Shown: positions 2,492 to 17,750 of the stretch, piece by piece
Numbering within the stretch: position 1 is the stretch's first letter
Layout of the letters: every line of letters starts with the position of its first letter
Source of the DNA: Polyangiales bacterium
GTDB lineage: Bacteria; Myxococcota_A; Polyangia; Polyangiales; Houyiibacteriaceae
Assembly (NCBI GenBank): GCA_041576815.1
Contig: JBFGKE010000007.1
Coordinates: 43,311 to 107,310 of the forward strand
Length of the DNA: 64,000 bases
Direction: 5' to 3'
Made by a program: the position numbers and the translations under genes
The notes under the pieces: model-generated
Told to the model about the DNA's origin: nothing
What the model saw: only the letters and a program-made list of their open reading frames with translations
Database searches by the model: none

Positions 2492-4354
2492 GTGAAACGA
2501 CTGCTGTCCGGGTTGTGCTTCGTGGTGAGCCTGTCGCTCCTCGGCGCCGCCGTGGGCCAGTCGTCACCGGGCTTCATTCACGTCGACGAGATACACCGGG
2601 GCATGAAGGGGTATGGGCTCTCGGTCTTCGAGGGTACCGAGCCCGAGCGATTCGATGTCGAGGTCATCGACGTGCTGCACAATTTCCGGCCGGATCAGGA
2701 CATGATCCTGATCCGGACGCCGCATCCCCTGCTCAATCGTGCCCGAGGCGTCGCGGGCATGAGCGGGAGCCCGATCTATCTCGACGGCAGGCTTGCGGGC
2801 GCGTATGCGTACGGGTGGAGCCAGGGCACCGACCCGGTCGTTGGCGTGACGCCGATCCGCAACATGCTCGCCGAGCTCGGCCGTCCAGTGCGCCTCGACA
2901 TGTTTCCGGGCGCCAAACCCTTGCCCAGCCGGCCGAGGGCGCATACGCCGAGCCCCCCACCGCGCGAACGACTGGCCGGACTTCCGCCCTTCGTCGGAGA
3001 GGGCGAGGTGACCGCGCTTTCGACCATTCGCGCCCTTCGAGAGCGGCGCGCCACGAGCACGCCGGTCGGCCTTGAGCGCGCGACGACCCCGATCATGCTC
3101 GGCGGCCTGCACGACTCGGTCGCCCACATGCTCGCCAGGGAGCTCGAGCCACTCGGTCTCGTCGCGACCCAAGCCGGAACGGGCGGACGTGCGGCAGCGG
3201 CACCGGCGCGTTTCGAACCGGGCAGCGCGGTCGCCGTGCAGCTGGCGCGCGGCGATATTTCCGTGACTGGCGTCGGCACGATCACGTACGTCGATCGCAG
3301 CGGCCGGACTCTGGCGTTTGGGCACCCCATGATGGAAGCAGGCGCGACCGGTCTTCCGACGGCGACCGCGCGGGTGCTCCACGTTTTGGTGAGCGAATTC
3401 CGCTCCTTCAAGATCGCCGAGGCCGCCCGACCGCTCGGGGCGCTGGTGCAGGACCGACAGCCCGCCATCGTGATCGACCCGGGCATCGAGCCCGCGCGCG
3501 TGCCCGTACGCGTGAAGATCAATGGGGCCGAGGGCGCACCGAAAACCGAATGGAACGTCGAGGTCGCGAGCCATCGCATCCTCACTCCGTCGATCGTCTT
3601 CGCCGTGATCGCCAACGCGGTGAAGTCCACGGCCGGCGACGTCGCCGACGTCATCTTTCGTGCAAAAAGCGAGGTCGGGATCGACGGCCACGGCACCGTC
3701 TCGCTCGACGAGCAGGGTTACTCCCCGCTCGGTGCAGCGAGCCCGGCGGCATTTTCGCAGCTTCGCATGTTCAGCCTCATGGAGGCCGCCTTCGCCAACC
3801 CATTCGAAACCTCTCGGCTCACCTCGGTCGATCTCGAGCTCGATCTGGAGCTGAGCCGGGACGTCTATCAAATCTCCGACGCTTCCGTGGCGTACGACGA
3901 AGTCGATCCGGGCGAGGACGTGACGGTGTACGTGAAGCTCCGTCGCGTCGACCATCCCGACACCACCCGGGCGGTGAAAGTTCACATCCCAATCGCTGCC
4001 GCCGGAAGCACCGTGCGCGTCGCGGTCTCCGCCGGCAACCAGGTTGCGCTCGAGCAGCCGAGGCCGGGATCCTTCGAGGACCTGATCGACCAAACGAAGC
4101 GTCGATACCCGGCGACCTCCCTCGTGGTTGCGCTCCAAATGCCGTCGCGCGGACTTCGCTTCGAAGGCCACGTGGTCGATTCGCTTCCGGCCTCGGCGCT
4201 GAACTCGCTTCAGCTCGTGAGCTCCTCGAAAAACAGCCGGCCGTTCGTGACGCAATCGCGTACGGAGGTCGAGCTCCCGCAGGTGGTCGTGGGCCGGGCA
4301 AATCTCGCGCTTCGCGTCCGCTCGGTCGCCCGCGATCAGCTACTCGGTGAATGA
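2492..4354 (+). CDS. Secreted peptidase S55 (SpoIVB-like) domain protein
   Basis: GTG at 2492 lies 20 nt after the receiver gene stop. The N-terminus VKRLLSGLCFVVSLSLLGAAVG looks like a signal peptide. GVAGMSGSPIYLDGRLAGAYAYGW matches the S55 catalytic-serine block. The track start at 2141 gives an Arg-rich extension overlapping the upstream gene and was rejected. Confidence 0.75.
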   Translation: MKRLLSGLCFVVSLSLLGAAVGQSSPGFIHVDEIHRGMKGYGLSVFEGTEPERFDVEVIDVLHNFRPDQDMILIRTPHPLLNRARGVAGMSGSPIYLDGRLAGAYAYGWSQGTDPVVGVTPIRNMLAELGRPVRLDMFPGAKPLPSRPRAHTPSPPPRERLAGLPPFVGEGEVTALSTIRALRERRATSTPVGLERATTPIMLGGLHDSVAHMLARELEPLGLVATQAGTGGRAAAAPARFEPGSAVAVQLARGDISVTGVGTITYVDRSGRTLAFGHPMMEAGATGLPTATARVLHVLVSEFRSFKIAEAARPLGALVQDRQPAIVIDPGIEPARVPVRVKINGAEGAPKTEWNVEVASHRILTPSIVFAVIANAVKSTAGDVADVIFRAKSEVGIDGHGTVSLDEQGYSPLGAASPAAFSQLRMFSLMEAAFANPFETSRLTSVDLELDLELSRDVYQISDASVAYDEVDPGEDVTVYVKLRRVDHPDTTRAVKVHIPIAAAGSTVRVAVSAGNQVALEQPRPGSFEDLIDQTKRRYPATSLVVALQMPSRGLRFEGHVVDSLPASALNSLQLVSSSKNSRPFVTQSRTEVELPQVVVGRANLALRVRSVARDQLLGE

Positions 4355-4360
4355 CAAAGC

Positions 4361-6388
4361 ATGAAAACGACCAAGATCACTAGTCGATTGGCGCCCGGAG
4401 CTCTCGTGCTCCTCGCAGGCGCCAGCGCAGCCGCGGTGACGACCGAGAGCTTCTTGCTCGACAGCGCCGACGCGTTTTTCGAAGGCGAGCTCGAGGGCAC
4501 CGCGGTTCACTCCGATGGTTCCGTGCGGGCGGGCGCTGCGACCGAGCGAACCGAGCTCACGGATGTGCCTCTCGCGTACAGCATGGCTTCCCGCGGCTCG
4601 GCTACCTTCATCGGTACGGGGACGAGTGGCGTCGTCTATCGCGTCGACGGAAAGAAGGTGAAGGCGTACGCGAACACGGGCGAGCTTCTCGTCTCGTCGC
4701 TCGCGTTTGGCGGCGACGGTGCGCTCTATGCAGGCACGTTGCCGAACGGCCGCATCTATCGCATCGACACCAAGACGGGCAAGGTCAAGCGCTTCAGCGT
4801 GCCCGAAGGCGCGAAACACATCTGGTCGCTCCACTACGATCGGAGGCGCGGCAGACTGATCGCAGGCACGGGCCCGGAGGGCAAAGTGTTCGCGATCGAC
4901 GCGATTGGGCTCGCCACGGAAATCTACGCGGCTGGCGCGGCGCACGTCATGACGCTCGCGGGCGACGGGAAAGGGACCGTGTATGCGGGCACCAGCGACG
5001 ATGCGGTCGTTCTCGCGCTTCAGCCGAACGGCCAGGTCACCGTGGTCCACGACTTCCCCGGAAACGAGGTCACCGCGATCGACCATCGCGACGGGAAGCT
5101 CGCCGTCGCCGTCAACGAGTTCAAGACGGTGCCCGGAAGTCAGTTCAAGCCCACCCCGAGCGGACCCTCGCGAGGTGCGTCGAGCCCGCCCACGCGGCCC
5201 CGCCCGGGGAGCGGCGAGCTGTGGCGCGTCGATGCAGATGGACGAGCCGAGCTGCTCCTCAGCCGCAAAGACACGCATTTTGCCTCGGTGCAGTGGGGCG
5301 CCGACGGGGCGATCTATGCCGGCGGAGGAAACGAGGGGCGGATCTTTCGGGTCGAGGACGACGCAAGCTATTCGATCTGGGTCGACGTGGAGGAGAGACA
5401 GGTGCTCGCGCTCGACGTCCGGACGAAGCAGCCATCGTTCGTCACCGGGGACGGCGCCGCGCTCTATCGCGTGAAGCGTGCCAAGCGGCGGGACGCGATC
5501 TGGACGAGCAAGGCGCTCGACGCACGGTTTTCATCGAGCTGGGGCAGGCTCGATTGGCGAGGCCGCGGGCGCTTCGTGTTTCAGACCCGTTCCGGGAACA
5601 CCAAAGAGCCGGGGGACACGTGGAGCCCGTGGTCGAAGGACATGAAAGCACCGGGGCGCGTGTCGAGCCCGCCCGGGCGCTTCGTGCAGGTTCGCGCGAA
5701 GCTCCCGAAAGACGCCTCCGCGGTTCTCCGCGCGGTCCAGTTGTTCTATCTGCCGCAGAATCAGCGCGCACGCGTGTCGAACGTCCAGGGCGGGCGGCCG
5801 CCGCTCAAGCGCGGCCAGGTTCCGCGCCAGCCGCCGCCGCCGACGACGCTTCTCGACCTGAGCTGGAAGATCGACAATCCCGATCGCGATCGGCTGCGCT
5901 ACCGCGTCGCCTACCGCGAAGAGCGGCAGACCAAGTGGCGCGACATGTTCGGGGAAGATACCGTCGTCACCGAGCCCAAGTACACCTGGAACACTGAAAG
6001 CATTCCCGACGGGTACTACGTCGTCCGCGTGGAGGCGTCGGACGAGACCGCGAACCCCGAGGATCGGACGCTGCGCGCCACGGCCATGTCAGAGCCGATC
6101 CGCGTCGACAATCACCCGCCGCGGATCGAAGCGCTGAAGCTGCGCAGAGGCCGGGTGCAGGCAACGGTCGTCGACACGGTCGGGCCGATCGCGCGCGCGC
6201 AGCTCTCGATCGACGGGGGCGACTGGCGCGACGTGTTCCCCTCCGATTCGCTCCTCGACGGCCCCGAAGAGGCGTTCAGCGTGCCGCTCGGCCCCATCCC
6301 GGCCGGCGACCACATCGTCGCGCTGCGGGCGTACGACGCCGCCGGCAATCAGGCGAACCGGGAAATCGTCGTAAAAACAAGCAGATAA
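4361..6388 (+). CDS. Secreted beta-propeller-repeat protein with C-terminal Ig-like (Y_Y_Y-type) module
   Basis: Signal peptide MKTTKITSRLAPGALVLLAGASAAA. Repeated G(T/D)G..G.(V/I)Y(A/R) blades (ALYAGTLPNGRIYRID, LIAGTGPEGKVFAID, TVYAGTSDDAVV). C-terminal ...PDGYYVVRVEASDETANP... block. Starts 6 nt after the S55 gene. Confidence 0.7.
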   Translation: MKTTKITSRLAPGALVLLAGASAAAVTTESFLLDSADAFFEGELEGTAVHSDGSVRAGAATERTELTDVPLAYSMASRGSATFIGTGTSGVVYRVDGKKVKAYANTGELLVSSLAFGGDGALYAGTLPNGRIYRIDTKTGKVKRFSVPEGAKHIWSLHYDRRRGRLIAGTGPEGKVFAIDAIGLATEIYAAGAAHVMTLAGDGKGTVYAGTSDDAVVLALQPNGQVTVVHDFPGNEVTAIDHRDGKLAVAVNEFKTVPGSQFKPTPSGPSRGASSPPTRPRPGSGELWRVDADGRAELLLSRKDTHFASVQWGADGAIYAGGGNEGRIFRVEDDASYSIWVDVEERQVLALDVRTKQPSFVTGDGAALYRVKRAKRRDAIWTSKALDARFSSSWGRLDWRGRGRFVFQTRSGNTKEPGDTWSPWSKDMKAPGRVSSPPGRFVQVRAKLPKDASAVLRAVQLFYLPQNQRARVSNVQGGRPPLKRGQVPRQPPPPTTLLDLSWKIDNPDRDRLRYRVAYREERQTKWRDMFGEDTVVTEPKYTWNTESIPDGYYVVRVEASDETANPEDRTLRATAMSEPIRVDNHPPRIEALKLRRGRVQATVVDTVGPIARAQLSIDGGDWRDVFPSDSLLDGPEEAFSVPLGPIPAGDHIVALRAYDAAGNQANREIVVKTSR

Positions 6389-6573: not shown

Positions 6574-7560
6574 ATGAACATCAGCAAACTAGCTTTAATC
6601 GCGCTACTCGGTGGCGCACTCATGGCCTTCGGCTGCGGCAGTGATTCGAACGGCGGCAACGGCGGCGCGGGCGGCGACGGCGGCTCTGGCGGCACCGCTG
6701 GTGGCGGCGGCACCGCTGGTGGCGGCGGCATGGCCGTGGCGTGCGAAGCGACCACGGAGACCTGCACTAACGGGGACATCGATCCCACGGACGAAAACTG
6801 CGTCCCTGCACTCGCGACTCCGCCCACCGCGGACGTCTGCGACGGCACGGAGAGCCTCGAGAATCCGGCCAGCTGCACCACGACGGGTGTCGTGGTCACC
6901 CACCAGCTCACGGCGGTTTCGATCTTCCCCGACTGCAACGGAGGCTACGACCTCGACGGCTGCAACGGCAACAGCTGCTCGCTTGGCTCACTCGCCCCCG
7001 ATGAGGGCATGGGCGGCGTCGACAACGCACTTGCGGGTCTTGCGCCAGTCCTCGTGGGCGTGGGCGGCAACCTGAGTGGCGTCAACCAGGCGTTCTACGA
7101 CGCGCTGTGCTCCGGTGTCATCAACATTCAGCTCAACGTCGACGCGAACGTCGACGAGGGCTGCGCGACGGTCGAGCTCGTGGTGGACGACGCCGCGGTC
7201 GGCACTGTGCTCTTGAACGTGGGGCCGCTCGACGTCGAGGCCGGTGCGGTTTGCGCCAGCGGCACGATCGGCGACCTCCCGATCTCGATCGGCGAGCCAG
7301 GCATGGCGGTCGACGGTGCGATTGCGAACAGCGTGATCCGCGTGTCGATCACCCCGACCGAGGGCTTCTCGAACGGCACGCTCGGCGGCACGGTGGACCA
7401 GGCCACCGCAGGCGCCATCGCCGACCTTCTCATCGATGGCGGTAGCGCGGTCGTCTCCCAGGTCCTCGACATCAACGACGCCCTCGTGGGCGACGCCAGC
7501 GCATCTTGTAACGCGCTGTCGCTGACGCTGACCATCGGCGGCGTCGCTCTCGTGCTCTAA
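6574..7560 (+). CDS. Lipoprotein with Gly-rich linker, unknown function
   Basis: AGGAG (6561-6565) precedes ATG 6574. Lipobox LMAFGCGS. Linker GGNGGAGGDGGSGGTAGGGGTAGGGG. G/C-dominated third codon positions. Confidence 0.7.
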   Translation: MNISKLALIALLGGALMAFGCGSDSNGGNGGAGGDGGSGGTAGGGGTAGGGGMAVACEATTETCTNGDIDPTDENCVPALATPPTADVCDGTESLENPASCTTTGVVVTHQLTAVSIFPDCNGGYDLDGCNGNSCSLGSLAPDEGMGGVDNALAGLAPVLVGVGGNLSGVNQAFYDALCSGVINIQLNVDANVDEGCATVELVVDDAAVGTVLLNVGPLDVEAGAVCASGTIGDLPISIGEPGMAVDGAIANSVIRVSITPTEGFSNGTLGGTVDQATAGAIADLLIDGGSAVVSQVLDINDALVGDASASCNALSLTLTIGGVALVL

Positions 7561-7587
7561 TCCGCCCTGCGGATACGACCAAGTCGA

Positions 7588-7620
7588 GGCCGGCACCTTC
7601 GGGTGTCGGCCTTTTCTTTT
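7588..7620 (+). terminator. Rho-independent terminator after the lipoprotein gene
   Basis: GGCCGGCACC (7588-7597), loop TTCG, GGTGTCGGCC (7602-7611). This is a 10-bp stem with one G-U pair, followed by TTTTCTTTT (7612-7620). Confidence 0.75.
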
Positions 7621-7630
7621 GCGCGCCCGC

Positions 7631-8683
7631 TCAGGATTTCGTGAAACGCCCGACTTTGAGCCGGTGCATCACCGCGAGCTTCTGACGCGCCTTGTAGGCG
7701 CGGTGGCTGGCGTCGCCCGCTTCGTTGCTTTCGTCGGTCGCGCGGTCGAGCACCTGGAACTCGGTTTGGACGAATAGGGTCCGGCCGAGGTCCTTGGTTG
7801 CCGGCGACGCGGCCGCGATCACCTCGTCTGGAACCCGCACGGGCACGTCCGCAACGAAGTGCACGATACGGTAGCTTGGCGCAGTGAAGCGGTTGTCGAT
7901 CGTCGAAAGCTCGTCCTCGAGGTCGAGCGGGAGCTGGAGCTTCGGGATCAGCTTCGTCAGCGCCGCGTCGGAACGGCAGTAGTCGTGAAAACGCGCCAGC
8001 GTGTTGGTCGACTGGCCTGGGATGACGAAGTTGAATGGAACGATGCTCCGCTGCACGTAGTTCAACACCGGGAAGATGTCTTCGGGATCCCGCGTGACGA
8101 TCCGGAACCGCACCTTGTCGTAAATTTGCGACGCACTGACTTCGGGCTTCGAAAGGAGCTTGGTGTAAAGCGAGTCCTTGTTCTTGCGCCCGCCGATGAA
8201 CTCGAGGATGGGGAAGTCGTTGGCAAGGGCCGCCGCCATCACACGGTAGACCTTTTGCTCGACCCAGTTGAACACCTCCTCGTCCGCGGTCGGGAGCACG
8301 AAAAAGAGCTCGCGCGCCTCGAGGTGCTGAATGATGTGCATGACCTTGAGAATCGCGCAGGCGCAGATTTGCCGGTGGCCTTTCGACGACGCCAGCATCA
8401 GCAAACCCAGGAGGTCCTTTCGGGCAACTGGTTTCGGCACCGGGAAATCAAAATGCCGCTTGAGGTAGTCGATCGCGGCTTCCTTCACCTGGGCCACGCG
8501 GGCCGCGTCAACCTCGTCGTTGGGATCGATCTCCTGCGCCCGAATGAAGGCCTCGGCCTCAGCCTCGTCGGCAAAGTTCAGCCGGTGCCAGTCGACCACC
8601 GAGCCGCCGCGTAGGAGGACCCGAATTCCCTCGAGATCGGCGAGGGTGAAATCGCTGACTGGGCGCAGCTCCGGTGCAAACAC
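7631..8683 (-). CDS. RelA/SpoT-fold nucleotidyltransferase-like protein (resembles the myxobacterial TIGR04552-type family)
   Basis: The ordered blocks GGRKNKDSLYTKL, DKVRFRIVTRD, SYRIVHF, TEFQV and HRAYKAR parallel the G-R-x-K, D-x-x-x-R-I, Y-R-x-x-H, E-x-Q and H-x-x-Y-K blocks of alarmone-synthetase folds. GTG start at 8683. Confidence 0.7.
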   Translation of the reverse strand: MFAPELRPVSDFTLADLEGIRVLLRGGSVVDWHRLNFADEAEAEAFIRAQEIDPNDEVDAARVAQVKEAAIDYLKRHFDFPVPKPVARKDLLGLLMLASSKGHRQICACAILKVMHIIQHLEARELFFVLPTADEEVFNWVEQKVYRVMAAALANDFPILEFIGGRKNKDSLYTKLLSKPEVSASQIYDKVRFRIVTRDPEDIFPVLNYVQRSIVPFNFVIPGQSTNTLARFHDYCRSDAALTKLIPKLQLPLDLEDELSTIDNRFTAPSYRIVHFVADVPVRVPDEVIAAASPATKDLGRTLFVQTEFQVLDRATDESNEAGDASHRAYKARQKLAVMHRLKVGRFTKS

Positions 8684-8685
8684 GG

Positions 8686-8835
8686 CTAGGGGGACCGTTC
8701 GAGGAGGATCGTGCCTACGAAAATGCCGAGGGACACCAACAAGACGAAGGCGTTGAACGTGAGCCCGCCATGACAGCCGCTAGCTGCCGCAAGACCCACG
8801 AGGCCTCCACCCCATTTGAACCACCGTCCCGCCAT
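8686..8835 (-). CDS. Unlisted 49-aa hydrophobic small ORF (MAGRWFKWGGGLVGLAAASGCHGGLTFNAFVLLVSLGIFVGTILLERSP)
   Basis: Hand translation of the minus strand. ATG at 8835, TAG at 8688-8686, only 2 nt before the GTG start of the downstream RelA/SpoT-fold gene. Two hydrophobic segments and mostly G/C third positions. Below the ORF-track length cut-off. No clear SD. Confidence 0.35.
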   Translation of the reverse strand: MAGRWFKWGGGLVGLAAASGCHGGLTFNAFVLLVSLGIFVGTILLERSP

Positions 8836-8923
8836 CTCGAGCGCCCGATTGATACCAGTCGTCCGGGGTGGGCGCTAGTGGAACCCGCAGGGTCGTTGCT
8901 GGGAGCGTAGATCTCGAATATCG

Positions 8924-11299
8924 TTGGCAAAACCAATGACGGATTCGATTTTTCCCGCTGGCGCCGAACCGATTCTTCCCATTCTGCCGCTTCGAAACTC
9001 CGTGTTGTTTCCCGCGACCGTGGTGCCGGTCAACGTGGGTCGAGCCCGATCGGTACGGCTCATCGAAGAGGCCTGCGGCCGCGAGCGCCCGGCGATTGGG
9101 GTGGTGACCCAGCACAAGCCGGAGGTCGAAGATCCGACGTTCGAGCAGGTTTATCACACTGGCACGATCGCGCGCGTTCTGAAGGTCATTCGCCTGAACT
9201 CCGGCCAGTACAGCGTCGTGCTCCAGGGCGTGAGCCGGATGCGCATCGAAGAGCCGCTCGGCCGACACCCGACTATGCGCGCGCGGGTGCACCGCTATCA
9301 CGAGGCACCCGCGGTCGACGTCGAGATCGAGGCGCTTGCCGCCCACCTGCGCGAGTCGGCGCGCCAGCTTCTTCACGACTTGCCGACCGCTTCGCGCGAA
9401 TCGCTCCACATCCTCGACAACGTCCGCGAGCCCGGCGCCCTCGCAGATCTGATCGAGTCCAACCTGCCGGTCTCGAACGAAGCCAAACAGGAAGTGCTGG
9501 AGACCCTCGACGTTCGCGAGCGCGTGCGCCTCGTGCTCGACCAGGTCAATCGGCAAAATGAGGTCCTTCGCGTCAAGCAAGAGATCTCGAGCATGGTCGA
9601 AGAGGAGATGTCGAGCTCGCAGCGCGAATACTTGCTCCGGCAGCAGGTCAAGGCGATCCGCCGAGAGCTCGGCGAAACCGACGTCGACGAGGACGACCTC
9701 GAGAACCTCCGCGAGCGAATCGCCCTCGGGCGGCTGCCGAGCGAGGCGGAGGCCGCCGCAAAGCGCGAGCTCCGGCGCATGGGCAACATGAACACGGCGA
9801 GCAGCGAGTACCAGGTCGCCCGAACGTACGTCGAGTGGCTCGCCGACCTTCCGTGGGCAAAGAGCACGCCGGACCGCCTCGACGTGCAGCAGGCGCGGCG
9901 GGTCCTCGACGAAGATCACTACGGGCTCGAAAAGCCCAAGCGCCGTATCGTGGAATACATCGCCGTACGCAAGCTACGCCGCGACGGCCGCGCGCCGATT
10001 CTCTGCTTCGTCGGTCCGCCGGGCGTGGGCAAGACCTCGCTCGGCCGTTCGATCGCGCGTGCGTCGGGTCGTGCCTTCGTTCGCGTGTCGCTCGGCGGCG
10101 TATCGGACGAGGCCGAGGTTCGAGGGCACCGGCGCACGTATGTGGGCGCGTTTCCAGGGCGCATCATTTCGGGGCTCAAGAAGGCCGGCGCCAAGAACCC
10201 CGTCATGATCCTCGACGAGATCGACAAGCTCGGCCGCGACCAGCGTGGGGACCCGGCAAGCGCGCTCTTGGAGGTGCTCGACCCGGAGCAGAACCGCCAG
10301 TTCACCGACCACTACATCGACGCGCCCTTCGATCTCAGCAAGGTGATGTTCATCGCCACGGCCAACCAAAAGAGCACGATCCCCAGCCCGCTCCTCGACC
10401 GCATGGAGGTGATCGAGCTTCCCGGGTACACCCCGCGCGAAAAGCGCTCTATCGCCCGCGACTTCTTGATTCCCCGTCAGCTCAGCGAGCACGGGCTTTC
10501 TCCCCAACGACTCGATTTCTCGGACGAGGCGATCGACGTCATGGTCGACTCCTATACGCACGAGGCCGGAGTGCGAAAGCTCGAACAGCAGTCCGCCGCT
10601 GTCTGCCGCGCAATTGCAGTACGGCTTGCCGCCGGCGAGGACGTGTCGATCCTCGCGGACGCGCCTTTCATCGAAAGTGTGCTCGGAGCTGCCAAAGCGC
10701 GCCGGCAGGAGCCCGAGCGAACCGCCAGAGCAGGGGTAGCGACCGGAGTCGCCTGGACGCCGGCCGGCGGCGATCTCCTGTTCGTCGAAGCCACGCGCAT
10801 GCCCGGCACCGGAAAGCTGCACCTCACGGGCAACATGGGCGAGGTGCTGAAGGAGTCCGCTGCCGCCGCGTTCACCTTCGTGCGCGCGCGGGCAGCCGAC
10901 CTCGGGCTCGACGCCGAGTTCGTCAACCATACCGACATTCACGTGCACCTTCCCGCAGGGGCAGTCCCTAAGGATGGTGCGGCGGCCGGGATCCCGCTCT
11001 ACGTGGCCCTCGCCTCGCTGCTCACCGAGCGCAAGGTGCGGCCTGATGTCGCGATGAGCGGGGAGATTACGCTGCGTGGCAACGTGCTCAAGGTCGGCGG
11101 CATCAAGGAAAAGTGCCTGGCGGCCCATCGCGCCGGGGTCTCGCGTATCCTACTCCCGAAGCGAAACGAGCCCGATCTCGAGGAGGTGCCGGAGGAGGTG
11201 CTCCAAGACTTGGAGATCTGCCTGGTCTCGAAGGTCGACGAGGTGCTCGGCCTCGTGGCCGACTCGGGATCCGCGGATTCACCGGCAGCCGCGGAATAG
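8924..11299 (+). CDS. lon: Lon-family AAA+ protein with protease-site Ser->Ala substitution
   Basis: Lon N-domain [23 protein letters not shown]. Walker [10 protein letters not shown], Walker [10 protein letters not shown]. The protease domain reads PKDGAAAG where Lon has PKDGPSAG, and VGGIKEK is retained. Confidence 0.9.
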
Positions 11300-11302
11300 T
11301 CC

Positions 11303-13591
11303 GTGCTCAGGCTATTTACTTTTTGGCTGAGCGCTGCGGTTGCCGCGATCGTGGGTGTCGCCCTCGCGTTCGTCCCCCTACTCGCGGTGCACGGGGTCGA
11401 AAGCGCGCTCGTCTTGGGGGTGCTGCTCCCGCCGTTCGTAGCCGCAACGGCCGCGAGCCTCACCGAGAGGAACTGGGGCGCGCGCGGACTCGACTTGATG
11501 CTGCGCGCGATTGGCGCCGGCTTGGCGATTTGGGCCATCCCGGTCGCACTGCTGGCGCTCGGCTCCTTGCGGGTGAGGCAGTGCGCGCCGGGCGAAGGCC
11601 TCGCGTTCATGATTCTCGGTCCCGGCGTCGGATGCATTCTCGCGGCGTGCGCGGGCGTGTGGACGGCCGGCATCGTGAGCAGGCCGCGTCTTTCGCCGTG
11701 GCTTGCTGCGTCGGTTCCGGTCGCCGCGGCGTTGCTCGGGCTTTGGACCTTTTACGCAACACCAACGGTATACGTGTTCGGCGCGTTTGCCGGCTACTTC
11801 CCGGGCGCGATCTACGACGACCTGGTCCGGATCCCGGACCGCTATCTCACGTATCGTGCTGCGATGCTGATCGCAGCGCTTGCGCTCGCGCTGTCCTTCG
11901 ACGCGCTGTGGGAGCCCACGGAGGGGCGGCTCGCTCCGAAAACCCGCGGGCGCCTCCGAATCGGAACCCTCGTCGTCGCGCTGGCCGCGCTTTGCATCGT
12001 GGGAGCTTCGTATTGGCACGGCGATCACCTCGGCCATTGGGTCACCGATGCAACCTTGATCGAGCGTCTTGGCAAGACCGAGCGCGGGGAACACTGCGTG
12101 ATGCACATGCCCCGCGAAACCCTCCCAGAAGACGCCGCGCGAATCCTCGAAGACTGTGATTTCAACGTGGCGCGCACCCGCGCACTTGCCGGGCTTTCGT
12201 CGACGGAGCCGGTCACGGTCTATTTGTTCCGCAATCAAGACGAGAAAAAAGATCTGATCGGCGTCGGCCGAACGCTGATCGCCAAGCCGTGGCGTGGAGA
12301 GATCTATCTCCAGCGCGCCGGCTGGCCGCACCGTATCTTGAGCCACGAGATCGTACACGCGGTGCTGCAAGAGGTCGGGCGCGGACCGTTTGCGATCTCC
12401 GGGACACTCGGAGGGCTGGTACCGAACCCGGGGCTCATCGAAGGCGCAGCCACCGCGCTCGCTTGGGACGTGCGGGACGACCTCGACCCCGACCAATGGT
12501 CGCGGATCATGCTCGACCGCAGTGAGCTGCCGGAGGCGTCGCGCCTGATGAGCCTCCGCTTCAGCTCGCTCCCCGCGCGACGCGCCTACATGGCCGCGGG
12601 CTCGATCACGCGGTTTCTGATGGCGACGCGTGGAATGGAGGCCTTCCTCGAGGCGTATCGACAGGGCCATATCGATCGGCTTCCCGAGCTCGAGCGCGCC
12701 TGGCACGAGTACCTTCGGGGCATCGACGTCAGCCCGCACGAACGGGGCGTCGCCGAGGTCGCCCTTGCCCAGCCGAGCATCTTCACGGCCGTCTGTCCGC
12801 ATGAGCTGGCAAAGCTCCGGACCGACCTCTTTGGTGACCTCGCCGCACGCGATGACGGCCGCACGATCGAGACCTGCCGCGCGATCCTCGACATCGACCG
12901 CAACGAGGCCCAAGCACGGGCCGCGCTGGTCGGCGCGCTCGCCCGCAACGGAAGCGAGGCGGCCGCGCGGAAGGAGCTCGACTCGCTTCGGGCTGCGATG
13001 AACGCGCCCAAACCGATCGTAGCCGCTGCGCTCGAGCAATACGCCGACGCGCGCTGGACGCTTGGCCACCTGGACGAGGCGGAATTGCTCTACGACGAGC
13101 TGCTCTCGATTCCAAGAACCGACACGCCCGCACGGCAAAGCGAGGTGAAGAAGATCGGCCTCGCCGCGAGTGCCGAAGAGCGTGAGCTGATCTACGAAAT
13201 GCTCCTCGGCCGCTCACCAAGCCCGGTGGTCGTCCACCTCGCCCACGCGCTCAGCGCTCTTCGGGAAGACGGTCTCGGCCCGTATCTCGAGGCGCGCCAG
13301 CTTTTGGGTCAGCACCGCTTTGCGCGCGCCCTTCCCTTGCTCGAAGACGCCGCGGCACGTGGCCTTCCCACCCGGCGGCTCGACCGGGAGCTTGGTCGTC
13401 TGATCGGCGTCGCGCTGTTCGCGCTCGGCCGGTACGAGGACTCGGCCGCAGCGTGGCGGGCCCACGCATCAGGGAGCCGCGCTGCCCAGGCAGAGAGCGA
13501 GCGCTGGCTCGAGCGCATCGAATACGCGGAAACGAGCGGGGTCAGTCCGGCGTTGCCAGGTCCATCGTCGGCTCCCCGAGCTGCGCCTTGA
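11303..13591 (+). CDS. Polytopic membrane protein with HExxH metallopeptidase-like core and C-terminal TPR-like region
   Basis: GTG start 3 nt after the Lon stop. The N-terminal ~330 aa are strongly hydrophobic (multiple TM segments). HEIVH at 12344-12358 is followed by [11 protein letters not shown] (Peptidase_MA-like). The C-terminus is helical-repeat. Confidence 0.7.
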
Positions 13592-14408
13592 CGTGCGCAG
13601 CAATCGAGCAGTCCGCGGTCACGATCGGATCGCCCTCCGCATTCGCGGAATCCGACTTCGGACCGATCTGACTTCGTACGGTGATCAGCCGGCCCCGGTT
13701 TTCGGTGCGCGAGCGGAGCACCAGCGCGTCGGTTGCGAGGTCCCAGAGAAACACATCGACCGGATCGTGAAGCCGACTCTTGCCCTGCACGACGAGGAGC
13801 AGAAAGTAGTCTGCAGGGACGCGCGCCTCGAGCTCGGGAAGCTGACGTTCGATCGCGCGTCGGAGCTGCTCCTCCCGCACGGACAGGCGCCGCATGTCGT
13901 TGGTCTCGTCGGCCCGAGCGAGCCACTTTGCCGTCAGCACCTCGGGCACGTCCGAAAGGGCGTCGAGTGGAATGACCTCGAGCCCGAGGCAGGCGCCGAT
14001 CGCGTCCTCGTCCTCTGCTTGAATGGCCGCTTGGAGCGTCTCTTCGGAGCGGAGGTCGGACGCCGGGACCTTGAGATAGATCACCTTCTCCTCGTGCAGG
14101 GCGGACGGCCGCACCCCGTCTTCCACCAGGCGATTCGCGGCGCCTGATTTCGCGTCGAGCGTCTTTTGCACGAGGTCGCGACGCGTCGTCTCCAGGCTCG
14201 TGAGAACCGGCGCGACCCGCTCGGCGTGGAGAGCCTGGATGCGCGTGCGGAGCTGGTCGGCTCTCACCTTCTGACGCCAGAGGTATCCCCCGACGAGGAG
14301 AGCGGTGACGAGCGCGACCCATCCAATTCGCCGCCACGGCAGTCGCGGGCGGTATCGGTTGCGCGGAGCGCCTTCGAACTCGGCAGGCGTGAGCTCGGAC
14401 GGCTCCAT
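13542..14408 (-). CDS. Single-pass membrane-anchored protein of unknown function, last gene of the exbB-exbD-exbD operon
   Basis: Starts 10 nt downstream of exbD. Basic N-tail plus TM IGWVALVTALLVGGYLW. No Pro-rich spacer or TonB C-terminal motif recognised. Preferred over the overlapping Arg-rich ORF 13309..14337. Confidence 0.55.
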   Translation of the reverse strand: MEPSELTPAEFEGAPRNRYRPRLPWRRIGWVALVTALLVGGYLWRQKVRADQLRTRIQALHAERVAPVLTSLETTRRDLVQKTLDAKSGAANRLVEDGVRPSALHEEKVIYLKVPASDLRSEETLQAAIQAEDEDAIGACLGLEVIPLDALSDVPEVLTAKWLARADETNDMRRLSVREEQLRRAIERQLPELEARVPADYFLLLVVQGKSRLHDPVDVFLWDLATDALVLRSRTENRGRLITVRSQIGPKSDSANAEGDPIVTADCSIAAHVKAQLGEPTMDLATPD

Positions 14409-14418
14409 GGAGCGAAGC

Positions 14419-14958
14419 TTAGCGCTCTTCGCGCTGATTGACCGCGAAGCTGACGTTGCCGTAGCCCGCAGCGGCTGCGGAGAACATCACTTTCTTCACG
14501 ACGCGGAAATCGATGTTGCGGTCGGCCTGGACGATCACCTGACCCGCGAACGGCTCGGAGGGGTGGATCGTCTCCCACTTTCGCTTCTCGGCCTCGAGCC
14601 CCTGAATGAGCGGCTCGATGCGATCGACCTGCGCGGACTGCCCCTGCGTCTGCGTGTCGGCAACGCGGCTGCCGTCGAGCGTGATCACGCGCTCGTCGAC
14701 CGCGACGATCGGCGAGATCTCGATCTGCTCGGTGTGCTTCGCATCAGGCATCGTGATGGTCGGCTGCTGCGCGATGAGCTCGCCGGAGGCGGAGAACGAC
14801 ATCAGGAGGAAGATGACCAAAACGATGAGGAAGTCGATGAACGGAATGAGCGGAATCTGGTGGTCGACGGCTTTGCGGCCGTGCCCAGTTACGCGGTTCC
14901 GGACGAACTTGAGTGGAACGTGATGGAGAAGCTCTGGCTGTGGTCGCTTGATCGCCAT
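14419..14958 (-). CDS. exbD: ExbD/TolR-family biopolymer transport protein
   Basis: KAVDHQIPLIPFIDFLIVLVIFLLMSF is the TolR/ExbD TM segment with its conserved Asp. 8-nt gap to the upstream exbD. Confidence 0.85.
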   Translation of the reverse strand: MAIKRPQPELLHHVPLKFVRNRVTGHGRKAVDHQIPLIPFIDFLIVLVIFLLMSFSASGELIAQQPTITMPDAKHTEQIEISPIVAVDERVITLDGSRVADTQTQGQSAQVDRIEPLIQGLEAEKRKWETIHPSEPFAGQVIVQADRNIDFRVVKKVMFSAAAAGYGNVSFAVNQREER

Positions 14959-14966
14959 ATTCCCCC

Positions 14967-15458
14967 CTACAGGAACGCTGCTCCGTCGGCCATCGACAGA
15001 TTGGTGAAGCCAGCCGCCGCGGCGACATCCATTGCAATGATGACGTCCTCGTAGCGAACGCCGTCCTCGGGCGCGACGATCAGGTCATCGCGCTTGTCCC
15101 AAGCCTGCTTCCATTGGCCGAGCTTGTTTTGCAGCTCGTCGACGTCGAACTCTTTCTGGTCGGCGACGACGCGCTTGGTGATGTCGATGCTCTCCCCCGC
15201 GGAGGACCCGAGCACGTAGCCCGAGTTCCGCACCTGCAGGACGAGCTTCACTTTTTCGTCTTCTGGCGGGGCATCCTCGGTGGACGCCTGCCCCGGGACC
15301 TGCTGATTGGCGTTCATCGCGGCCAGCTGGTTCCAGACCGCGGTTGCCAGGAGGAACATGACGCAGCAAAGCAGCAGGTCGATGAACGGAATCAGGGGGA
15401 TCTCCTGATTGACCGCCTTCTTCCCAGACTCTCCTCCACCAGAATCGATTGCAGCCAT
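14967..15458 (-). CDS. exbD: ExbD/TolR-family biopolymer transport protein
   Basis: AVNQEIPLIPFIDLLLCCVMFLLATAVW TM segment with the conserved Asp. The C-terminal YEDVIIAMDVAAAAG block is typical of ExbD. Confidence 0.85.
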   Translation of the reverse strand: MAAIDSGGGESGKKAVNQEIPLIPFIDLLLCCVMFLLATAVWNQLAAMNANQQVPGQASTEDAPPEDEKVKLVLQVRNSGYVLGSSAGESIDITKRVVADQKEFDVDELQNKLGQWKQAWDKRDDLIVAPEDGVRYEDVIIAMDVAAAAGFTNLSMADGAAFL

Positions 15459-15466
15459 GAGGCTCG

Positions 15467-16117
15467 TTACTCCGCAGGAATGTTCTGGAGATCGACCTTC
15501 GAGCGGTTGCCCACGACCAGGTTCAGGACCTGCACGGTGGCCGCATTGATGTCATCGATGATCTTCTGGGTCTTGCCATTCAGTAGCCCCATCATGAGGA
15601 GCGCGAAGACCGCGGTGATCAGACCGAACGCGGTGCAGTTCATGGCTTCCTCGATACCCTTCGCCAAGCCCGTGGCCTTGCTGGCGGCGTCGGCCTTGGC
15701 CACCTCGCCGAACGCCGTGATCAGACCGACGACCGTGCCGAAGAGACCGCAGAGCATGCCAACGTTGGCCAGCAGACCGAGATACGGCGTGCGGCGCTCG
15801 ATCAGCGGAAGCTCCTTGAGCGCGGCTTCATCCATGGCGGCTTGAACCTCGGCATCAGGGCGGTTCACTTTGAGCAAACCCTGCTTGACGATGCGCGCCA
15901 GCGGGTTGTGCTCGGCTGAGCAAACCTTGATCGCACCGGCGACGTCGCCGGAGGTGATGCACTTCTGCATTTTGGCGATGAACTCGTCCTTATCGATCGA
16001 CGCCTTGTACAGATACATCGCGCGCTCGATCGTGAAGCCGATTGCAAACACCAGACAAACGAGGATGAGCCACATCGCCCATCCGCCTGCTTCAAAGTGG
16101 TATGCCAACTTGGCCAT
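15467..16117 (-). CDS. exbB: MotA/TolQ/ExbB proton-channel protein
   Basis: AGGAGG SD before ATG 16117. WAMWLILVCLVFAIGFTIER first TM, and LANVGMLCGLFGTVVGLITAF...AMNCTAFGLITAV are the TolQ/ExbB channel helices. Confidence 0.9.
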   Translation of the reverse strand: MAKLAYHFEAGGWAMWLILVCLVFAIGFTIERAMYLYKASIDKDEFIAKMQKCITSGDVAGAIKVCSAEHNPLARIVKQGLLKVNRPDAEVQAAMDEAALKELPLIERRTPYLGLLANVGMLCGLFGTVVGLITAFGEVAKADAASKATGLAKGIEEAMNCTAFGLITAVFALLMMGLLNGKTQKIIDDINAATVQVLNLVVGNRSKVDLQNIPAE

Positions 16118-17192: not shown

Positions 17193-17750
17193 ATGCCCGC
17201 GCGACTGACACCCCGCCAACGAGCCTACGTCCGGAAGCGAACGATCATTCCGGACGCCGACCCGTCGGAGCTGAGTGAAGAGCTCAACATCGTGCCGTTC
17301 TTGGACATCGTCGTGAACATCGTCATGTTCCTGCTGATGACCCTGACGACGATCGCCTTCTTTTCCCAGGTCGAGGCGGCCCTTCCCGAGTATCGAAAGG
17401 GGGGCATCGGCAAGCGTGCCGCCGACGATGAGGCGCTCAACCTCAACGTGACCGTGACGCGGGCGGGGGTGATCGTCTCCGGGTCCGGCGGCAAGCTCGC
17501 GCGTGGTTGCACGACGACAGCACCGGGCAAAGTGATCACGGTGCCCGCGGGGATGAACGGCGAGCACGATTGGAAAGGGCTCACGACCTGCGTGAGTCGG
17601 GTCAAGGAGCAGTTCGAGGACGAGACGCGCGTGACGCTGAGCGCCGACCCCGAGGTCGCCTATGAAGAGTTGATCGCAGCGATGGACGCCGTGCGCGGCT
17701 CCGAGAACGAGCTCTTCCCGGATGTGTTGTTGTCGGCGGGGATTCGATAG
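17193..17750 (+). CDS. exbD: ExbD/TolR-family protein
   Basis: ELNIVPFLDIVVNIVMFLLMTL TM segment with the conserved Asp. C-terminal YEELIAAMDAVRG. 12 nt after exbB. Confidence 0.85.
   Translation: MPARLTPRQRAYVRKRTIIPDADPSELSEELNIVPFLDIVVNIVMFLLMTLTTIAFFSQVEAALPEYRKGGIGKRAADDEALNLNVTVTRAGVIVSGSGGKLARGCTTTAPGKVITVPAGMNGEHDWKGLTTCVSRVKEQFEDETRVTLSADPEVAYEELIAAMDAVRGSENELFPDVLLSAGIR

Follow-up and report, generated by a model that had tools for sequence, protein, structure and literature searches.

A predicted exported membrane micro-protein and a divergent RelA/SpoT-fold enzyme, encoded by adjacent genes on the minus strand of the window (the whole 64,000-nucleotide stretch of Polyangiales DNA analysed here), probably constitute, at somewhat better than even chances, a conserved Polyangia-type two-gene module, in which the small protein would serve a divergent pyrophosphokinase as its membrane partner, whether as tether or as regulator. 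The linkage of the two genes is reciprocal, and the fold and catalytic residues of the enzyme are conserved. The features of the locus are as follows.

7586..7613, no strand assigned: GC-rich hairpin that separates the enzyme gene, at its 3' end, from a convergent 328-aa lipoprotein gene
7631..8683, minus strand: TIGR04552-family enzyme gene, 350 aa, GTG start, with a modelled divergent RelA/SpoT-synthetase fold
8681..8688, minus strand: putative coupling junction, TAG + cc + GTG, no Shine-Dalgarno sequence 5-10 nt upstream
8686..8835, minus strand: small-protein gene, 49 aa, ATG 8835..8833, TAG 8688..8686, encoding a predicted micro-lipoprotein/transmembrane protein
8701..8763, minus strand: predicted membrane-spanning helix of the small protein (LTFNAFVLLVSLGIFVGTILL, about residues 25-45), with E-R-S-P after it
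8773..8835, minus strand: predicted signal peptide of the small protein, residues 1-21, with the Cys21 codon at 8775..8773
8849..8858, minus strand: invariant CTGGTATCAA element, 13 nt 5' of the ATG of the small gene

The hairpin, located by a scan for terminator-like sites, consists of 12 pairs, 8 of which are G-C, and is probably the terminator that closes the two-gene transcription unit. An Rfam scan of 7000..9500 gave just sub-threshold matches, overlapping the terminator hairpin, so no riboswitch or leader RNA is indicated in this interval. Upstream of the small gene lies the element TGGTATCAA (CTGGTATCAA), which 26 of the 27 close-clade intergenic regions that were aligned carry unchanged between variable flanks. 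The element resembles an extended -10 promoter (TGnTATCAA), and its distance of 13 nt from the ATG would imply a very short leader without a Shine-Dalgarno sequence. A generic sigma-70 scan of the intergenic region detected no full promoter, so the candidate promoter function of 8849..8858 is suggested by the invariance of the element itself.

Domains, fold and catalytic residues of the large protein

The preliminary description reported a 350-residue minus-strand protein with ordered alarmone-synthetase blocks, and all of them are located in the translation of 7631..8683(-): GGRKNKDSLYTKL at residues 164-176, DKVRFRIVT at 189-197, YRIVHF at 271-276, TEFQV at 307-311 and HRAYKAR at 327-333. 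The protein is a full-length, high-scoring member of the family of MXAN_4858 and DOE51_RS08710 (TIGR04552/TIGR04562): residues 14-342 match positions 2-350 of the 352 in the NCBIfam TIGR04552 profile (E 5.5e-99, 331.8 bits against a cut-off of 125), and TIGR04562 scores 317.3 bits. The Pfam RelA_SpoT profile PF04607 aligns residues 167-334 with positions 4-112 of 113, at a score (25.8 bits, E 1.3e-5) under the gathering threshold of 27; a precomputed PF04607 match is present in many close homologues. As had been described, no hydrolase or further regulatory domain was found by Pfam or NCBIfam scans.

In the AF2 model (pLDDT 81.7, pTM 0.82), an extra helical N-domain (about residues 1-100) precedes a synthetase-like core (about 103-341), in which residues 168-188 form a flexible loop and residues ~214-273 an insert specific to the family. 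The top 50 matches of the model in a Foldseek search of the PDB are all RelP, RelQ, Rel or RelA, the top matches having probabilities of 0.8-1.0, E-values of 5.6e-5 to 1e-3 and TM(target) values of 0.4-0.5, with 6fgk, 6fgj, 6ex0, 5dec, 1vj7 and 8acu as the best. A single-sequence search of the PDB returned no match, and a profile search returned RelSeq as its sole match (E 0.054). Alignment to RelSeq pairs S171 with S247, K175 with K251, D189 with D264, R194 with R269, E308 with E323 and Q310 with Q325, and H327, Y330 and K331 correspond to H342, Y345 and K346. With RelSeq D264 and E323 taken as the reference catalytic/Mg-binding acidic residues, both these residues and the phosphate-binding Lys/Ser of synthetases are present in the enzyme. 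In enzyme alignments that reach down to 30% identity, K167, S171, D189, R192, E308 and D313 do not vary, and position 175 is occupied mostly by Lys. The RelA/SpoT synthetase fold proposed earlier is thus supported by the modelled structure and by the aligned catalytic Asp and Glu; the preliminary description had allowed that catalytic residues might be lacking, and D189 and E308 are both retained.

The order of the motifs is shared with RelP, RelQ and the synthetase domain (PF04607) of long Rel/RelA/SpoT proteins. Compared with RelP, RelQ and Rel, the window enzyme adds the helical N-domain of ~100 residues and the insert of ~60 residues, and unlike long Rel it is without hydrolase, TGS and ACT domains. 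The RxK of RelSeq is reduced to RK, of which the Lys alone is invariant, and EIQIRT is replaced by EFQVLD, with an invariant Asp. Because the Pfam threshold is missed, R166 and H275 vary family-wide and the Arg of EIQIRT is replaced, the substrate could differ from those of the known alarmone synthetases; the most likely reaction is a pyrophosphate transfer with ATP as donor and a nucleotide-type acceptor. DsRel (SAS-TPR), which includes Treponema denticola Tde-SAS, is a RelA/SpoT-fold SAS family reported from spirochetes and Deltaproteobacteria (PMC10434055). Membership of the window enzyme in it was considered and rejected, since DsRel consists of a catalytic domain plus TPR, whereas the window enzyme has an N-terminal helical extension, a C-terminal core and no TPR.

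The TIGR04552 family comprises ~780 clusters at 50% identity, and its named members belong to Myxococcota (Anaeromyxobacter, Sorangium and several metagenome-assembled genomes), with one member listed for Bdellovibrio sp. NC01 (DOE51_RS08710). The sole functional hint for the family comes from the transposon-fitness pattern in M. xanthus, in which mutants of MXAN_4858 (TIGR04552) resemble those of the glt gliding machinery (bioRxiv 10.64898/2026.08.28.747804). In Anaeromyxobacter, which represented Myxococcia in the locus inspection, the orthologue is located after GltI/GltJ-like genes, named on the basis of the GltJ domain architecture (PMC11135422). The glt gene context and the M. xanthus mutants suggest a membrane-proximal role of the family in other myxobacteria, which is counted in favour of the membrane-linked module. 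For the TIGR04552 family, no account of a small membrane partner that is conserved was found.

Conservation and predicted topology of the small protein

The unlisted 49-residue frame of the preliminary description, at 8686..8835(-), translates exactly as MAGRWFKWGGGLVGLAAASGCHGGLTFNAFVLLVSLGIFVGTILLERSP, and this exact sequence is already a called gene in a public protein collection. Its relatives are annotated solely as 'hypothetical protein'; routine annotation often skips the small gene or covers it by over-extended enzyme calls. A search with tblastn and a peptide HMM, the check proposed earlier, covered 86 genome loci, taken from a scan of genome contigs that was limited to its best loci. 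In 80 of the 86, a homologue (29-85 aa) that starts with ATG and is intact adjoins the TIGR04552 gene. The other six comprise two without upstream sequence (L008, L024) and four that truly have no small gene beside the enzyme gene (L038, 74% identical, and L081, L083 and L085).

Over a 27-codon core, all 75 copies are distinct in DNA. The entropy by codon position is 0.82/0.48/1.39, so variation is highest at the third position, and pN/pS is 0.42, or 0.23 in the close clade; the two shifted frames of the core, which are interrupted by stop codons, have ratios of 1.0 and 1.8. Within the close clade, pN/pS is 0.20 for the mature part (residues 21-49), 0.58 for the signal part and 0.18 for the enzyme gene, the relaxed value of the signal part being that expected of a signal peptide. 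A missing synonymous-site pattern had been named beforehand as an argument against the gene, and the pattern is present. The small ORF is a genuine gene under purifying selection, as is the enzyme gene.

The window protein begins with a basic n-region (R4, K7), followed by a short h-region, GLVGLAAA, and a lipobox, A-S-G-C21. Of the 81 homologues, 79 (all but L076 and L086) have a lipobox-context Cys after a K/R-containing n-region, with H, N, S or Q as the +2 residue; separately, the Cys is missing in a soil clade (L113-L127). The small protein therefore has the basic n-region, the h-region and the lipobox Cys within the first ~40 residues that define a lipoprotein signal, and the mature product would be a lipidated single-span peptide of ~29 residues. 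The two hydrophobic segments described earlier do belong to a conserved membrane protein; the first of them, however, is a lipoprotein-type signal peptide and not a second span. In a Pfam/NCBIfam scan of 25 diverse members, no family was matched by more than four of them and all E-values were weak; the weak matches were to lipoprotein-signal models only, including entericidin A, LptM and YgdI/YgdR.

The helix follows the family consensus GN..VL..TVGIF.GTL.LGR, with hydropathy peaks of 2-3 over this stretch. F39 and T42 are invariant, and conservation reaches at least 90% at G20, C21, I38, L45 and R47. The window helix contains the conserved Asn28 together with G37-I-F-x-G41-T42, and a basic residue comes after it; across the 81 copies, a small-xxx-small pattern is present in 79, a polar N/Q/H in 78 and the basic residue in all. 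Polar Asn and GxxxG-like motifs are typical for helix-helix contacts. The 29-aa ORF of L086 retains the transmembrane helix alone, and since this ORF and the Cys-less L076 and L113-L127 keep the helix and its basic C-terminal side, they should share the N-out/C-in topology predicted for the small protein. With this predicted topology, the cytoplasmic tail measures ~4 residues (ERSP) in the window's clade and 14-25 Ser/Thr/Ala/Arg-rich residues in other clades. Tail length correlates with the C-terminal extension of the enzyme (rho 0.58), mostly by one phylogenetic split and with exceptions both ways; this co-variation was dropped as evidence because the one clade split dominates it.

Small single-span membrane partners of larger proteins include KdpF, MgrB and AcrZ, and small lipoproteins include the entericidins EcnA/B. 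The small protein resembles them in its size class (30-70 aa), in having one helix or lipid anchor and in a gene near to or co-regulated with that of the partner, but has no sequence relationship to them beyond the lipobox. In Pfam and NCBIfam scans, no described arrangement was found that combines a lipobox Cys, a transmembrane helix a few residues on and a RelA/SpoT-fold partner.

Linkage of the two genes and alternative readings

In a reciprocal metagenome search seeded with the small protein alone, using 8 closer sequences, the enzyme gene is adjacent in 36 of 38 informative loci. In the genome loci, the pair is divergent from Lon in 73 of 80, and this synteny is kept in dozens of Polyangiales/Sandaracinaceae genomes, with enzyme orthologues 60-93% identical. 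The two genes might therefore be mere neighbours, linked by inherited synteny, with the small protein serving the divergent Lon protease or another membrane complex. The small gene is still beside Lon in L052/L106, whose enzyme gene has the inverted orientation, so that co-transcription is not obligatory, and in L102, where the adjacent enzyme gene is absent; moreover, the very short tail in the window's clade offers little surface for the binding of a soluble enzyme, which counts against the module, as do the loci that have one of the two genes without the other (the enzyme gene in L038, L081, L083 and L085, the small gene in L102). This reading is nevertheless unlikely, and a Lon partnership was rejected as the chief explanation, since the pair is also kept in loci without Lon. 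The pair lies amid OmpA, cytochrome c, DUF507, YicC and Gmk genes in Sorangium So ce1014 (L082) and in L084; in L086, it is located after a Toluene_X gene; and in the soil clade L113-L125, the small gene is directly 5' of the enzyme gene. The small gene stays 5' of the enzyme gene in all of these loci with Lon not nearby, and the pair is found in three unrelated neighbourhoods, its linkage having outlived at least three changes of neighbourhood, down to 43% enzyme identity. As the linkage outlasts the change of neighbourhood, the partner of the small gene appears to be the enzyme and not Lon.

The translational juxtaposition of the two genes in the window's clade likewise argues against mere neighbourhood. 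As read earlier, a gap of 2 nt, here cc, separates the TAG (8688..8686) from the GTG (8683..8681). The enzyme gene is in a different frame, and there is no Shine-Dalgarno sequence 5-10 nt upstream of the GTG. In the close clade, stop + 2 nt + GTG recurs in 30 of 32 loci, one further locus has the ATG version (L037) and another a gap of 3 nt (L003). An SD-less junction of this form in 31 of 32 loci, together with a probably very short mRNA leader, is what would be seen if the small ORF were mainly a coupling or leader ORF that sets translation of the enzyme, its peptide being functionless. Such a role is improbable: the constraint on the mature part matches that on the enzyme; the peptide motif is common to more than 1,200 database clusters; and the 2-nt coupling is limited to the window's clade, the peptide being kept elsewhere with a gap of 9-310 nt, with the enzyme gene inverted, or with the helix alone.

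The preliminary description compared the pair to toxSAS-type toxin-antitoxin systems, in which the enzyme would be a growth-arresting toxin and the small upstream protein its antitoxin. In toxSAS modules, two genes form an operon and the partner is small (PMC7229694), and the window pair shares with FaRel, FaRel2, CapRel and PhRel a stand-alone RelA/SpoT-fold gene with a small gene tightly juxtaposed to it. The comparison does not extend further, and a toxin-antitoxin function is very improbable. Lon-divergent synteny across an order denotes vertical inheritance instead of a patchy, mobile or defence-island distribution; neither protein matches a PADLOC defence model at E <= 1; and the pN/pS of the enzyme is housekeeping-like. 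In L038, L085 and L081, the small gene is missing and the enzyme gene is nonetheless intact; in L052/L106, the enzyme gene is inverted away from the small gene. No toxSAS, CapRel or Tas1 entries are present among the top-50 structural neighbours, and an exported lipoprotein/helix with almost no cytoplasmic part would be an improbable neutraliser of a cytoplasmic toxin. The vertical syntenic inheritance, the strong purifying selection and the exported membrane-peptide partner set the pair apart from toxSAS modules, and the conserved small gene immediately 5' of the enzyme gene in many myxobacterial genomes points to a membrane-linked signalling pair rather than a toxin-antitoxin pair. Lastly, the abundance of spurious ORFs in a genome of 64% GC and the lack of a Shine-Dalgarno sequence before the 49-aa ORF might suggest an open frame that arose by chance in GC-rich intergenic sequence. 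This idea is refuted by more than 110 independent loci in which the frame, its start and stop codons and the peptide are conserved, by third-position variation and by the stops in other frames.

Proposed mechanism and significance

In the proposed module, the 49-aa pre-protein would be exported via its lipoprotein signal peptide, lipidated at Cys21 and cleaved to a ~29-residue peptide, whose acylated N-terminus would lie in the periplasmic leaflet of the inner membrane. The single helix (Asn28, G37xxxG41, T42) would cross the membrane, leaving a few residues protruding into the cytoplasm. The product of the second gene would be the cytoplasmic TIGR04552 enzyme, with Asp189 and Glu308 as predicted metal-binding/catalytic residues and with the putative phosphate-binding K167/S171/K175 kept. 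In the window's clade, ribosomes may end the small gene and restart 2 nt on at the SD-less GTG, by which the enzyme would be produced only along with the membrane peptide, at a fixed low ratio to it. Through a physical interaction, the small protein would act as a membrane-embedded partner, by which the enzyme would be positioned or controlled at the inner membrane or at some machine of the envelope. Membrane tethering or regulation, the idea preferred in the preliminary description, is the best hypothesis for the pair.

A more specific version of the module is doubtful: the micro-lipoprotein may be the membrane-embedded sensor/activator subunit of an unrecognised RelA/SpoT-fold class, converting envelope state into a nucleotide messenger as product or into pyrophosphorylation of a target. 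A link to an envelope machine is hinted at by the glt-cluster location of the Myxococcia orthologue, and in the long-tail clades the small protein's own Ser/Thr-rich tail might conceivably serve as this target.

RelA/SpoT-fold enzymes play a central part in stress signalling, and each known stand-alone member is either a soluble housekeeping synthetase or a toxin paired with an antitoxin. In the probable two-gene module, a dedicated membrane micro-protein under high constraint is the partner, within one large lineage, of an orphan RelA/SpoT-fold family; this provides a concrete handle on the function of TIGR04552. The small gene is also a clean case of a conserved bacterial micro-protein, shorter than 50 aa, that evolutionary evidence clearly supports. 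Should the peptide control the enzyme, the pair would represent a new wiring of envelope state to nucleotide signalling.

The small gene and its surroundings

The small ORF and the enzyme gene, which encodes a RelA/SpoT-synthetase-like protein of the TIGR04552 family, lie between Lon and a convergent lipoprotein gene.

Features of the locus (window positions)
8683..7631, minus strand: enzyme ORF, 350 codons, GTG start
8835..8686, minus strand: small ORF, 49 codons, ATG start
8924..11299, plus strand: Lon protease gene, divergent from the small ORF across a spacer of about 100 nt
7586..7613: hairpin between the enzyme gene and the convergent lipoprotein gene

Two nucleotides (cc) separate the small ORF's TAG from the enzyme GTG, which is in a different frame. 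The peptide sequence and all five motif blocks of the preliminary description are found exactly as quoted there. Because GC-rich DNA yields many spurious ORFs and the window has 64% GC, the small ORF required an evolutionary test. A scan of one genome per species provided the best 80 loci, with enzyme relatives at 60-88% identity. By tblastn and a peptide HMM, a small-protein homologue adjoins the enzyme gene in every sufficiently flanked locus but one (L038), and all homologues found there are intact and ATG-started. The 75 copies of a 27-codon core are all distinct in DNA and vary mainly at the third codon position (entropy 0.82/0.48/1.39); pN/pS is 0.42 overall and 0.23 among the window's closest relatives, against 1.0 and 1.8, with stops, in the shifted frames. 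For codons 21-49, the mature part, pN/pS in the window's clade is 0.20, practically equal to the 0.18 of the enzyme in the same genomes, and the signal part is more relaxed (0.58). Conservation of the 49-aa ORF upstream of orthologues is thus borne out, with a coding-type substitution pattern.

In the protein collection the small-protein family forms at least 1,271 clusters, each of them unnamed or labelled 'hypothetical protein', and no Pfam or NCBIfam model covers it; the window's exact sequence is already on record as a called gene. Five database enzymes of 399-423 aa (P0014, P0059, P0060, P0070 and P0073) carry N-termini extended by 50-73 residues. These calls translate the small-gene DNA in another frame, their common 'WYQSGARD' being the translation of the conserved TGGTATCAATCGGGCGC element (window 8836..8860), and look like mis-annotations hiding the small gene.

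Further out, a Gly-rich 328-aa putative lipoprotein (6574..7560, plus strand), poorly conserved and matching elsewhere solely in its signal region, separates the enzyme gene from a 675-aa secreted repeat protein (4361..6388, plus strand; weak DUF6923 match), whose gene is kept downstream of the enzyme in 39 loci. On the other side, a few kb past Lon and the gene for a 762-aa membrane/TPR protein, a cluster at 13542..16117 (minus strand) combines an ExbB/MotA-type gene with two of the ExbD/TolR type and an adjoining 288-aa ORF without a Pfam match; another ExbD gene follows at a distance of about 1 kb (17193..17750, plus strand). Together they may form a motor set of the TonB or Agl kind.

Linkage of the two genes

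The small gene is present in 80 of the 86 loci found through the enzyme. In the reverse scan of metagenomes, with the small protein alone as query, 42 loci were recovered, 38 of them with at least 400 nt downstream; a TIGR04552 gene adjoins the small gene in 36 of these 38 and is co-directional downstream in 35. The exceptions are L102, with a Ser/Thr kinase gene downstream, and L112, an odd low-GC contig. The pair is divergent from Lon in 73/80 loci. In three other settings no Lon is nearby: in Sorangium So ce1014 (L082) and in L084 the pair has OmpA/cytochrome c genes on one side and DUF507-YicC-Gmk on the other, in L086 it comes after a Toluene_X gene, and the third setting is a soil clade (L113-L125). 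These loci reach down to 43-53% enzyme identity. Since the pair persists in Lon-less neighbourhoods, the enzyme gene is the conserved partner of the small gene. That the two are merely neighbours is the remaining alternative, but their linkage is reciprocal and holds in at least three neighbourhoods, which favours functional partnership.

L038, L083, L085 and Anaeromyxobacter (L081) have the enzyme but lack the small gene, and in L052/L106 the enzyme gene is inverted with the small gene in its unchanged place. L038 offers a clean natural case of the small gene having been deleted or moved: no more than about 85-100 nt (3893..3989) separate its enzyme gene (74% identical) from the divergent Lon, and no trace of the small ORF was found within the 9 kb examined.

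In the Sorangium-type loci (L082 5001..11092; L084 4001..7370), the DUF507, YicC-like and guanylate kinase genes follow the pair. In E. coli, yicC-gmk is near spoT, and (p)ppGpp is known to act on guanylate kinase in some bacteria. Several lineages carry a large Ser/Thr protein kinase gene, in some cases with TPR or PEGA domains, right beside TIGR04552 or the small gene.

Ser/Thr kinase neighbours
L085, 5497..8355
L086, 5399..8110
L102, 2754..5042
P0455 locus

Anatomy and expression of the small protein

The consensus consists of a basic n-region, a short hydrophobic h-region, a lipobox with an almost invariant Gly-Cys and a helix segment, reading [H/N/Q/S]-G-[G/A]-x-x-x-N-x-x-V-L-x-x-T-V-G-I-F-x-G-T-L-x-L-G-R after the Gly-Cys. 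The Cys stands in a lipobox context in 79/81 copies, and the helix bears a conserved polar Asn, a GxxxG-like G-I-F-x-G-T motif and always a terminal basic residue. From this sequence pattern we infer an Lgt/LspA-processed lipoprotein, the mature form of which would be a lipid-anchored single-span peptide, N-out/C-in. The tail past the basic residue is a 2-residue extension in the window's clade (...ERSP) and 14-25 Ser/Thr/Ala/Arg-rich residues, often with an EATRS-like motif, in more distant clades. The L086 small ORF is the helix alone (29 aa, ending RRRR), and L076 and soil loci L113-L127 have lost the Cys and kept the helix; the helix, retained in all these variants, is therefore the part that matters.

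The junction described earlier, TAG, 2 nt and GTG, is confirmed, and stop, 2 nt and start recur in 31/32 loci of the window's clade (GTG in 30, ATG in 1), with no Shine-Dalgarno sequence at the usual distance from the enzyme start. The arrangement is as expected for termination-reinitiation coupling, which we infer would join the two genes. In other clades the gap is 9-310 nt, so tight coupling is a derived feature of the window's clade. A role purely as a leader ORF does not hold up: selection constrains the peptide sequence as such, which is also retained where coupling is impossible.

In the window's clade, CTGGTATCAA (8858..8849) is invariant 13 nt before the small-gene ATG, in a spacer that varies elsewhere. 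As an extended -10 element, which its sequence fits, it would give a near-leaderless mRNA; because a generic promoter scan did not call it, its promoter role is putative. On the Lon strand (8880..8935), an invariant TTGCTG, about 17 nt and TATCGT precede a short leader and the probable Lon ATG (~8936). TTGCTG-17-TATCGT is likely the Lon promoter, placed in the same ~100-nt spacer as the small-gene element, and the TTG listed as the Lon start (8924) probably lies too far upstream.

The enzyme and the role of the pair

The enzyme belongs to NCBIfam TIGR04552 as a full-length match (331.8 bits, cut-off 125), and the sister model TIGR04562 scores it at 317 bits. Pfam RelA_SpoT matches residues 167-334 (E 1.3e-5) at 25.8 bits, just below the 27-bit gathering score. 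No domain beyond these was found, in agreement with the earlier claim that hydrolase and regulatory domains are lacking. With 70 homologues as input, AlphaFold2 gave a confident model (pLDDT 81.7, pTM 0.82), the top 50 PDB neighbours of which are all RelP, RelQ or Rel/RelA synthetase halves (E down to 5.6e-5, probability 0.8-1.0, TM-score 0.4-0.5 on target). Aligned with the Rel enzyme RelSeq, the family profile equates S171 with S247, K175 with K251, D189 with D264, R194 with R269, E308 with E323, Q310 with Q325, and H327/Y330/K331 with H342/Y345/K346. Down to 30% identity, the invariant residues are K167, S171, D189, R192, E308, D313 and N320, but not R166 or H275, and EIQIRT has become EFQVLD. 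The enzyme has an additional helical N-domain of about 100 residues, a flexible loop (168-188) and a ~60-residue insert (214-273) with its own invariant P216, N218 and N227. The fold matches and residue alignment therefore uphold the proposed RelA/SpoT synthetase fold, with the catalytic acidic pair intact, yet in a distinct lineage. At 50% identity the family counts about 780 cluster representatives, its named members being from Myxococcota, plus one listed in Bdellovibrio sp. NC01. Identity with DsRel (SAS-TPR), a catalytic domain plus TPR, was rejected.

A toxin-antitoxin pair, suggested by analogy with toxSAS, fails wherever it can be tested: inheritance is vertical and syntenic, purifying selection on the pair is strong, defence models give zero matches, the small partner is an exported membrane peptide, and the enzyme persists in loci without it.

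In other myxobacteria, the TIGR04552 family is connected to envelope machinery. In Anaeromyxobacter oryzae (L081; AP025591.1, 1..6292), the orthologue directly follows genes for a 4125-aa TPR and a 603-aa Zn-ribbon+GYF protein, which are like the gliding genes GltI/GltJ (GltJ architecture from PMC11135422), but the small lipoprotein gene is missing upstream of it. A 60-aa CxxC...CxxC ORF (6110..6292) overlaps the orthologue's stop by 4 nt. In a pooled M. xanthus fitness screen, MXAN_4858 insertions mimic glt mutants (bioRxiv 10.64898/2026.08.28.747804). The family is absent from the described Agl-Glt components.

Reciprocal linkage and these envelope ties lead us to propose that the micro-lipoprotein may partner a divergent RelA/SpoT-type pyrophosphokinase from within the membrane, either placing the enzyme at the inner membrane or regulating it there. 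Our confidence is slightly better than even, limited by the tiny cytoplasmic tail in the window's clade. The enzyme family is already catalogued, though uncharacterised, and the small-protein family is uncatalogued; no description of their pairing was found in the literature and databases searched. In conclusion, the evolutionary evidence for the pair is solid and the partner hypothesis readily testable; the new element is a membrane micro-protein that would serve a stand-alone RelA/SpoT-fold enzyme as its dedicated partner, by a mechanism that is still putative.
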